64,000 nucleotides of DNA. Origin: a phage. This document shows, piece by piece, positions 43,258 through 43,716 of this stretch (positions are counted from its first letter, which is position 1; each line of letters begins with the position of its first letter). The position numbers and the translations under genes were made by a program. The notes below the pieces were generated by a model. The model saw only the letters and a list, made by a program, of their open reading frames with translations, did not search any database and had not been told where the DNA came from. The stretch lies in sequence record PZ445523.1, one strand, 5' to 3'.

Positions 43258-43716
43258 TTATTTTAAATCGTCTGCCCAATCGAGTTTAAGAGGCTCTTTA
43301 TATTCACGGTCAAGTACAACCGGAATTTGTACATCACCGCTAAATGATAAGGGTCCAACATTATAAGACAATGTTATATGCGGTGTGTAATCATCAAAAT
43401 CATGTGTAGCACCTAGTGCCCGCGCATACATGTGTCGACAGCGCAGATATTCAGAATCTAGCACAAGTACAAGAGTCGATCCATCTTGTGTTTTCCATAC
43501 TTCTAAATGTCCAGAAGAAGCTACTTCAAAACTTCCACTCGATAGAACATATGGAACATTTACTCTTGAATAACATATGGTCGAATGAATTTTTTCTCTA
43601 GGAACTGGATTAGGAACACGTAAAGAGCGCTGAAGTTCTTCCAGCGCATCAAGTGTTAATTCTGAAAACTTAGCTGCTACATAAAGACCCGTTGAAAAGT
43701 CTTTAAATTCCATCAT
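43258..43716 (-). CDS. 57B: 2H-phosphoesterase gp57B (Acb1-type anti-CBASS nuclease)
   Basis: 152 aa; two H-x-T/S motifs (HSTICY, HITLSY); conserved position upstream of 57A and gene 1. Confidence 0.75.

Follow-up and report, generated by a model that had tools for sequence, protein, structure and literature searches.

An orthologue of T4 gene 57B (acb1), a CBASS-evasion gene, in the genome of a Tequatrovirus

The stretch of DNA analysed here (hereafter, the window) comprises 64,000 nucleotides of phage sequence (record PZ445523.1) and belongs to a Tequatrovirus. Over the 22 kb that surround the gene under study, identity to the nearest relatives, among them phages a48, JK23 and PP01, is ~96%. 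The minus strand carries, in order, genes 4, 2, 3, 1, 57A, acb1, two internal-head-protein genes, homologues of trna.4, trna.3 and trna.2, and eight tRNAs, and the gene order around acb1 is common to T4 (NC_000866) and phage ZCEC15. The acb1 gene occupies 43258..43716, stop codon included, and is an ATG-started ORF that encodes 152 aa. The initial annotation had reported this ORF and left its strand unstated; the list of open reading frames confirms it and places it on the minus strand. The position assigned to it, that of gene 57B in T4, is borne out by the neighbours, with gp57A and gp1 on the 5' side and the internal-head-protein genes, trna.4/.3/.2 and tRNAs on the 3' side.

Gene 1 (43943..44668, minus strand; dNMP kinase; Pfam PF21448, DNMK, E = 7.3e-106) is the first member of an apparent 1-57A-57B unit, and gene 57A (43713..43943, minus strand), encoding the tail-fibre assembly chaperone (Pfam PF17594, GP57, E = 2.7e-50), lies directly before acb1. 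The stop codon of 57A and the start codon of acb1 share an ATGA overlap (43713..43716, minus strand, GAAGAATGATGGAA), which was read directly from the sequence and is identical in T4. Translation of acb1 is probably coupled to that of 57A, and we infer that one transcript covers genes 1, 57A and acb1. The chaperone has 76 aa in the window, compared with 80 aa in its T4 counterpart, owing to an in-frame deletion of 12 nt; the four missing residues (AKDE-type) would immediately precede the stop codon overlapped by the acb1 start. The 76-aa form is also found in relatives such as ZCEC15.

The consensus of T4 middle promoters consists of a MotA box and a TATAAT-type -10 element. Upstream of gene 1, in the short gap that separates it from gene 3, a pattern match was found that combines a MotA-box-like AATGCTTCA, an 11-nt spacer and TATAAT (44694..44719, minus strand), and this site is a candidate promoter of the 1-57A-acb1 unit. 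Such a candidate middle promoter fits the reported expression of T4 57B, which is predominantly middle/late, and the appearance of Acb1 activity ~15 min into T4 infection. Two further matches lie inside gene 1, one MotA-box-like (44195..44203) and one, TATAAATA (44299..44306), late-promoter-like. An Rfam search over 39000..46500 returned only the eight tRNAs, with no RNA family overlapping acb1.

The identity of the acb1 product is supported by several comparisons. Against the Pfam family Acb1 (PF23474), the protein scores 201.4 bits (E = 7e-60) over profile positions 1-144 of 144, while the curated cut-off of this family is 27 bits. It is identical to T4 gp57B (NP_049750.1, gene 57B of NC_000866) at 151 of 152 residues, the sole difference being P58L. 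PHROGs assigns it to phrog_755 (E = 2e-67), and its best sequence match in the PDB is Acb1 of Erwinia phage FBB1 (7t26/7t27; 7t26, E = 1.5e-62). Orthologues of Acb1 were found in 1,471 phage records. A scan against NCBIfam gave no model match; the family is absent from that library, and this result is no argument against membership. Hobbs et al. (2022, PMC9117128) used activity-guided fractionation to show that Acb1 is the product of T4 gene 57B, and the initial annotation was right to equate the two. The acb1 gene of the window is thus a direct orthologue of the founding member of the Acb1 family, a gene that is already known, and nothing new is claimed for it here.

The exact start of the protein is slightly less clear. 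Two consecutive ATG codons open the ORF, and because most homologues have 151 aa and the old T4 record X03016 likewise annotates 151 aa, the second ATG (43713) may, on these comparisons, be the true start.

At the DNA level, acb1 differs from its T4 counterpart at nine nucleotides (P58L plus eight silent changes), which yields seven synonymous codons and one non-synonymous codon. Judged from the codons, this 7:1 ratio is a signature of purifying selection on the minus-strand frame. It also bears on the question of whether the ORF could be an accidental reading frame or a degenerate pseudogene: the codon ratio, the intact, full-length frame, the family E-values of ~1e-60 and the large number of phage records with orthologues all contradict such a reading, and we regard it as practically excluded. 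Two antisense ORFs on the plus strand (43416..43601 and 43430..43573) were considered as genes and rejected, since all but one of the eight codons with differences from T4 are synonymous in the minus-strand frame.

Another important question is whether the residues required for catalysis and ligand binding are preserved. The initial annotation had noted two motifs typical of 2H phosphoesterases, HSTICY and HITLSY, and had stated that the assignment would be undermined if an alignment showed the catalytic histidines to be lost. Both motifs are present and align with the Acb1 tetrad: the first, H44-S45-T46, is encoded at 43579..43587 and the second, H113-I114-T115, at 43372..43380 (both on the minus strand). 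H44 and H113 are retained, and all four tetrad residues are invariant in 66 of 66 homologues, which are cluster representatives drawn from 5.8 billion protein clusters. In the published enzyme, H44, T46, H113 and T115 form the acid-base HxT/HxT tetrad, and the substitution H44A abolishes the activity of T4 Acb1; the bases stack against Y12, W74, F107 and W147, the adenine N6 is recognised by E141, and residues 145-152, including W147, form a lid over the ligand (PMC9117128). All nine of these functional residues (Y12, H44, T46, W74, F107, H113, T115, E141 and W147) are found in the window protein. Across the 66 homologues, E141 is invariant together with the tetrad, and the stacking positions are either conserved or replaced aromatic for aromatic. 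The codons of the C-terminal lid (145-152, at 43261..43284, minus strand) specify the same residues as in T4.

A structure of the acb1 product was predicted with AlphaFold2 from a 67-sequence alignment from which the T4 row had been left out (mean pLDDT 89.8, pTM 0.83). In a Foldseek comparison, this model superimposes on 7t26, the apo form of FBB1 Acb1, with an rmsd of 0.8 Å over 136 columns (E = 1.5e-20, target-normalised TM 0.96), and on 7t27, the complex with the 3'3'-cGAMP product, with a TM of 0.92. Model confidence is low at residues 147-152, which is consistent with a flexible C-terminal lid in the predicted structure. After the Acb1 structures, the next fold matches are a Burkholderia phage phosphodiesterase and then LigT and other enzymes of the 2H superfamily at TM ~0.5; the superfamily matches include LigT, Usb1, CPDase and AKAP18, and the two H-x-T/S motifs that this superfamily carries on its duplicated alpha/beta lobes are present.

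These fold matches raise the question of whether the protein is in fact an RNA ligase, that is, a LigT-like RNA-repair 2',5'-ligase that acts on RNA ends and not on immune signals. Such a reading would agree with the description of phrog_755 as 'RNA ligase', with the same label given by RefSeq to T4 57B and many of its orthologues, and with the occurrence of LigT structures among the distant fold matches of the model. The corresponding Pfam family, 2_5_RNA_ligase2 (PF13563), which is the only other Pfam match, scores 13 bits (E = 0.11), far short of its cut-off of 27, and covers residues 81-123 only; LigT shares 13-14% identity with the protein at a TM of ~0.5, compared with 0.96 for Acb1; and the 99%-identical T4 protein has been shown, both biochemically and genetically, to be a cyclic-oligonucleotide phosphodiesterase. 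With the Pfam match below threshold, LigT remote and the published biochemistry contrary, we rejected this interpretation, which appears extremely improbable, and retained the assignment to Acb1. The label 'RNA ligase' reflects only shared ancestry within the 2H superfamily.

Database labels around this family deserve some attention. Orthologues of Acb1 are still widely recorded as 'RNA ligase' or 'hypothetical protein', and the name 'anti-CBASS protein Acb1' is carried by just one of the 25 best DNA matches (ZCEC15). In addition, the 99%-identical protein cluster P0001, with 167 members, has as its representative an entry recorded as an Enterococcus faecalis hypothetical protein on a contig of 3,075 bp; it is almost certainly a T-even phage contamination of the assembly. 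The 'RNA ligase' labels in many RefSeq and PHROG records would mislead automated annotation.

Among characterised systems, the closest is T4 gp57B, which has the same length of 152 aa and the same tetrad and ligand contacts, and whose gene is likewise flanked by 1 and 57A and followed by the same PeSL cassette. The next is Acb1 of phage FBB1, an orthologue from another host group, which shares ~68% of residues over 141 positions with a single one-residue gap and has an identical tetrad, but which differs in the stacking set, with F for W at position 74 and Y for F at 107, and has V at 58. More distant is the phosphodiesterase of Burkholderia phage BCSR5 (9Q2G/9Q2Y, deposited as 'Anti-CBASS protein Acb1'; 165 aa), in which the 2H fold and the lid are recognisable (Foldseek probability 1.00, TM 0.6-0.7), together with a weak sequence match across both HxT motifs (E = 0.011, ~18% identity). 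This enzyme represents a distant branch and not an orthologue of the window Acb1.

Beyond these phage proteins, LigT (E. coli, 5LDI), Usb1 and the plant CPDase resemble Acb1 in having the 2H fold and two HxT/S motifs, but they are larger, share 13-17% identity at TM ~0.5, act on other substrates and lack the lid and the stacking set of Acb1. The poxvirus cGAMP phosphodiesterase (9BKQ), coronavirus ns2 and rotavirus VP3 are of the 2H type and give weak fold matches (TM 0.33-0.5, E >0.01). What these viral proteins, Apyc1 and the ring nucleases have in common with Acb1 is a strategy, the destruction of a nucleotide second messenger of the host; the other viral signal-degrading enzymes act on different substrates (2'-5' oligoadenylate, 2'3'-cGAMP), and Apyc1 is an unrelated enzyme of the MBL fold.

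The only residue that separates the window protein from T4 Acb1 is encoded at 43543..43545 (minus strand), where codon 58 is CTA (Leu) instead of the CCA (Pro) of T4. How widespread is this allele? The exact protein is absent from a collection of 15 billion proteins, and no phage record encodes an identical one, the best reaching 151 of 152 residues. A 41-nt query centred on codon 58, built so that each 28-mer seed includes the variant base, gave 0 matches in 50,697 phage records when it carried the L58 allele; the same query with the T4 allele, used as a positive control, matched 286 phage records, and the negative result for L58 in these records is therefore meaningful. An exact 23-mer across the L58 codon likewise gave 0 matches in IMG/VR, the positive control having been run on the phage records only. 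Among the public sequences covered by these searches, L58 is thus confined to this genome.

In the AlphaFold2 model, residue 58 lies in a loop (51-63) between the strands 45-50 and 64-76. Positions 57 and 58 are the two variable columns of this otherwise conserved loop, in which P55, Y56, G61, S62 and F63 are highly conserved. Among the 66 cluster representatives, position 58 is occupied by V (31), T (10), A (7), P (6), C (6), I (3), E (2) and K (1); Leu does not occur. Since the column is variable (V/I/T/A/C), Leu is chemically similar to V and I, and the residue is located in a loop, P58L is probably neutral, a conservative change toward the aliphatic majority.

The alternative is that the private substitution leaves the enzyme weaker, inactive or with a different range of substrates, for example as an adaptation against being detected by guards of the Panoptes type, which respond to the loss of decoy cyclic nucleotides. 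The absence of the allele from all other public sequences searched, with a positive T4-allele control, and the highly conserved loop residues on either side of L58 would be compatible with an altered function, and phages challenged by Panoptes are known to inactivate this very gene through single-nucleotide mutations: under type II Panoptes, escapers of phage Bas35 carry single-nucleotide acb1 mutations, and a Bas43 escaper carries a nonsense mutation (PMC13577387). Several observations point the other way. Column 58 tolerates eight different residues; FBB1 Acb1, which is active and was crystallised, has V at this position; P58L touches no catalytic or ligand-contacting residue; the frame is intact, and the remaining differences from T4 are all synonymous; and the genome is ~4% diverged from its nearest relatives, so a single private missense change is unremarkable. 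An impaired or redirected enzyme is, in our judgement, very unlikely, and neutrality of P58L is the preferred reading. A narrower variant, in which the substitution might tune Acb1 (e.g. toward less activity on cA3 or other decoy nucleotides) and thereby preserve CBASS evasion without tripping Panoptes-type guards, is to be considered very improbable. If true, it would make P58L a natural specificity-shifted allele of Acb1.

On its 3' side, acb1 is followed by a cassette of the PeSL (promoter-early/stem-loop) type (43186..43262, minus strand), in which an early-promoter-like element, GTTTAC-17-TACTAT, overlaps a 13-bp stem-loop (43206..43235) and precedes the ribosome-binding site of the next gene. 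The RNA fold of this stem-loop has an energy of -18.7 kcal/mol (z = -4.0). Altogether three copies of ~75 nt are present on the minus strand (43186..43262, 42856..42932 and 42479..42551), located after acb1 and after each internal-protein gene, and each has a -10 element in or beside its stem-loop. The three window copies and the two T4 copies (after 57B and ipI) show a mean identity of 81%. A generic terminator scan after acb1 found no canonical intrinsic terminator, the PeSL stem-loop being devoid of a T-run; a terminator role for this stem-loop would follow by analogy with the PeSL promoter/terminator cassettes described in the literature, for which a mediating role in the modular shuffling of T4-type phages has been proposed (PMC2839356, PMC4122927). 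The PeSL copies are likely recombination substrates for the swapping of internal-protein genes.

The two genes that these cassettes delimit encode internal head proteins of 85 aa (42928..43185, phrog_3499) and 102 aa (42547..42855, phrog_2667), both on the minus strand. In T4, the corresponding place is occupied by a single gene, ipI, whose product is a GmrSD inhibitor, and only the N-terminal targeting peptide MKTFKEF is held in common with T4 IPI. The internal-protein segment of 784 bp instead corresponds, at 97.6% identity, to the ip5-ip7 locus of phage T2; the full ip5-ip7 arrangement occurs in only 13 of 581 matching phage records. Going by this sequence identity, acb1 adjoins a T2-type and not a T4-type internal-protein locus.

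Farther along the minus strand, ARAGORN detected a cluster of eight tRNAs (40142..41494) for Arg, Met-CAU, Thr, Ser, Pro, Gly, Leu and Gln. As in T4, tRNA-Arg is separated from the CAU tRNA by an ORF for a segB-like GIY-YIG homing endonuclease (40222..40887, minus strand); this CAU tRNA, called Met by ARAGORN, is a tRNA-Ile in the T4 annotation. Past the tRNA cluster, an ORF of 153 aa (39300..39761, minus strand; phrog_2280) begins with MKTYAQFLMTEA, which resembles the capsid-targeting peptide of T4 internal proteins, and its product may be another injected internal protein.

On every point of sequence, structure and position that was checked, the ORF agrees with membership in Acb1. We are highly confident that it is the orthologue of T4 gene 57B (acb1) and that it specifies a CBASS-evasion 2H phosphodiesterase, with the activity of the L58 allele taken from its close relatives. 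Cyclic-nucleotide cleavage has been published for the T4 protein and nine other homologues; the reaction, metal-independent and in two steps, cuts 3' of adenosine and proceeds via a cyclic phosphate, and cA4 and 3'2'-cGAMP are not substrates (PMC9117128). By analogy with the 99%-identical T4 protein, we infer that this chemistry and the CBASS-evasion phenotype also apply to the window protein, and the L58 allele would be expected to be fully active.

The product of acb1 would thus be a small, metal-independent 2H phosphodiesterase acting during infection. It would bind cyclic di- and trinucleotide signals of CBASS with one or more adenosines (3'3'-cGAMP, cUA, cAAA) and hold them in a U-shaped pocket of stacking aromatic residues (Y12/W74/F107/W147), where E141 would read the adenine N6 before the C-terminal lid closes over the ligand. 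The tetrad H44/T46/H113/T115 would then carry out acid-base cleavage 3' of the adenosine by way of a 2',3'-cyclic phosphate intermediate, and the linear product (e.g. GpAp) would be unable to activate CBASS effectors, so that abortive infection would be prevented.

The consequences for infection are documented in T4 and related phages. A T4 acb1 deletion mutant has a defect of more than 300-fold on CBASS hosts, and in a transposon screen, acb1 was non-essential on K-12, while insertions in 57B were depleted on a CBASS host. Type II Panoptes, a system that senses the loss of cA3, restricts T-even phages encoding Acb1 (PMC13577387); the defence of type I Panoptes against T4 depends on acb2 and not on acb1.

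The designation of the ORF in the initial annotation as a known counter-defence gene, included as a positive control for the region, is borne out; acb1 serves here as a calibration point, a known counter-defence gene recognised correctly from raw sequence. For the phage itself, resistance is predicted to CBASS signalling through adenosine-containing, 3'-5'-linked cyclic di- and trinucleotides, along with a possible sensitivity to type II Panoptes.
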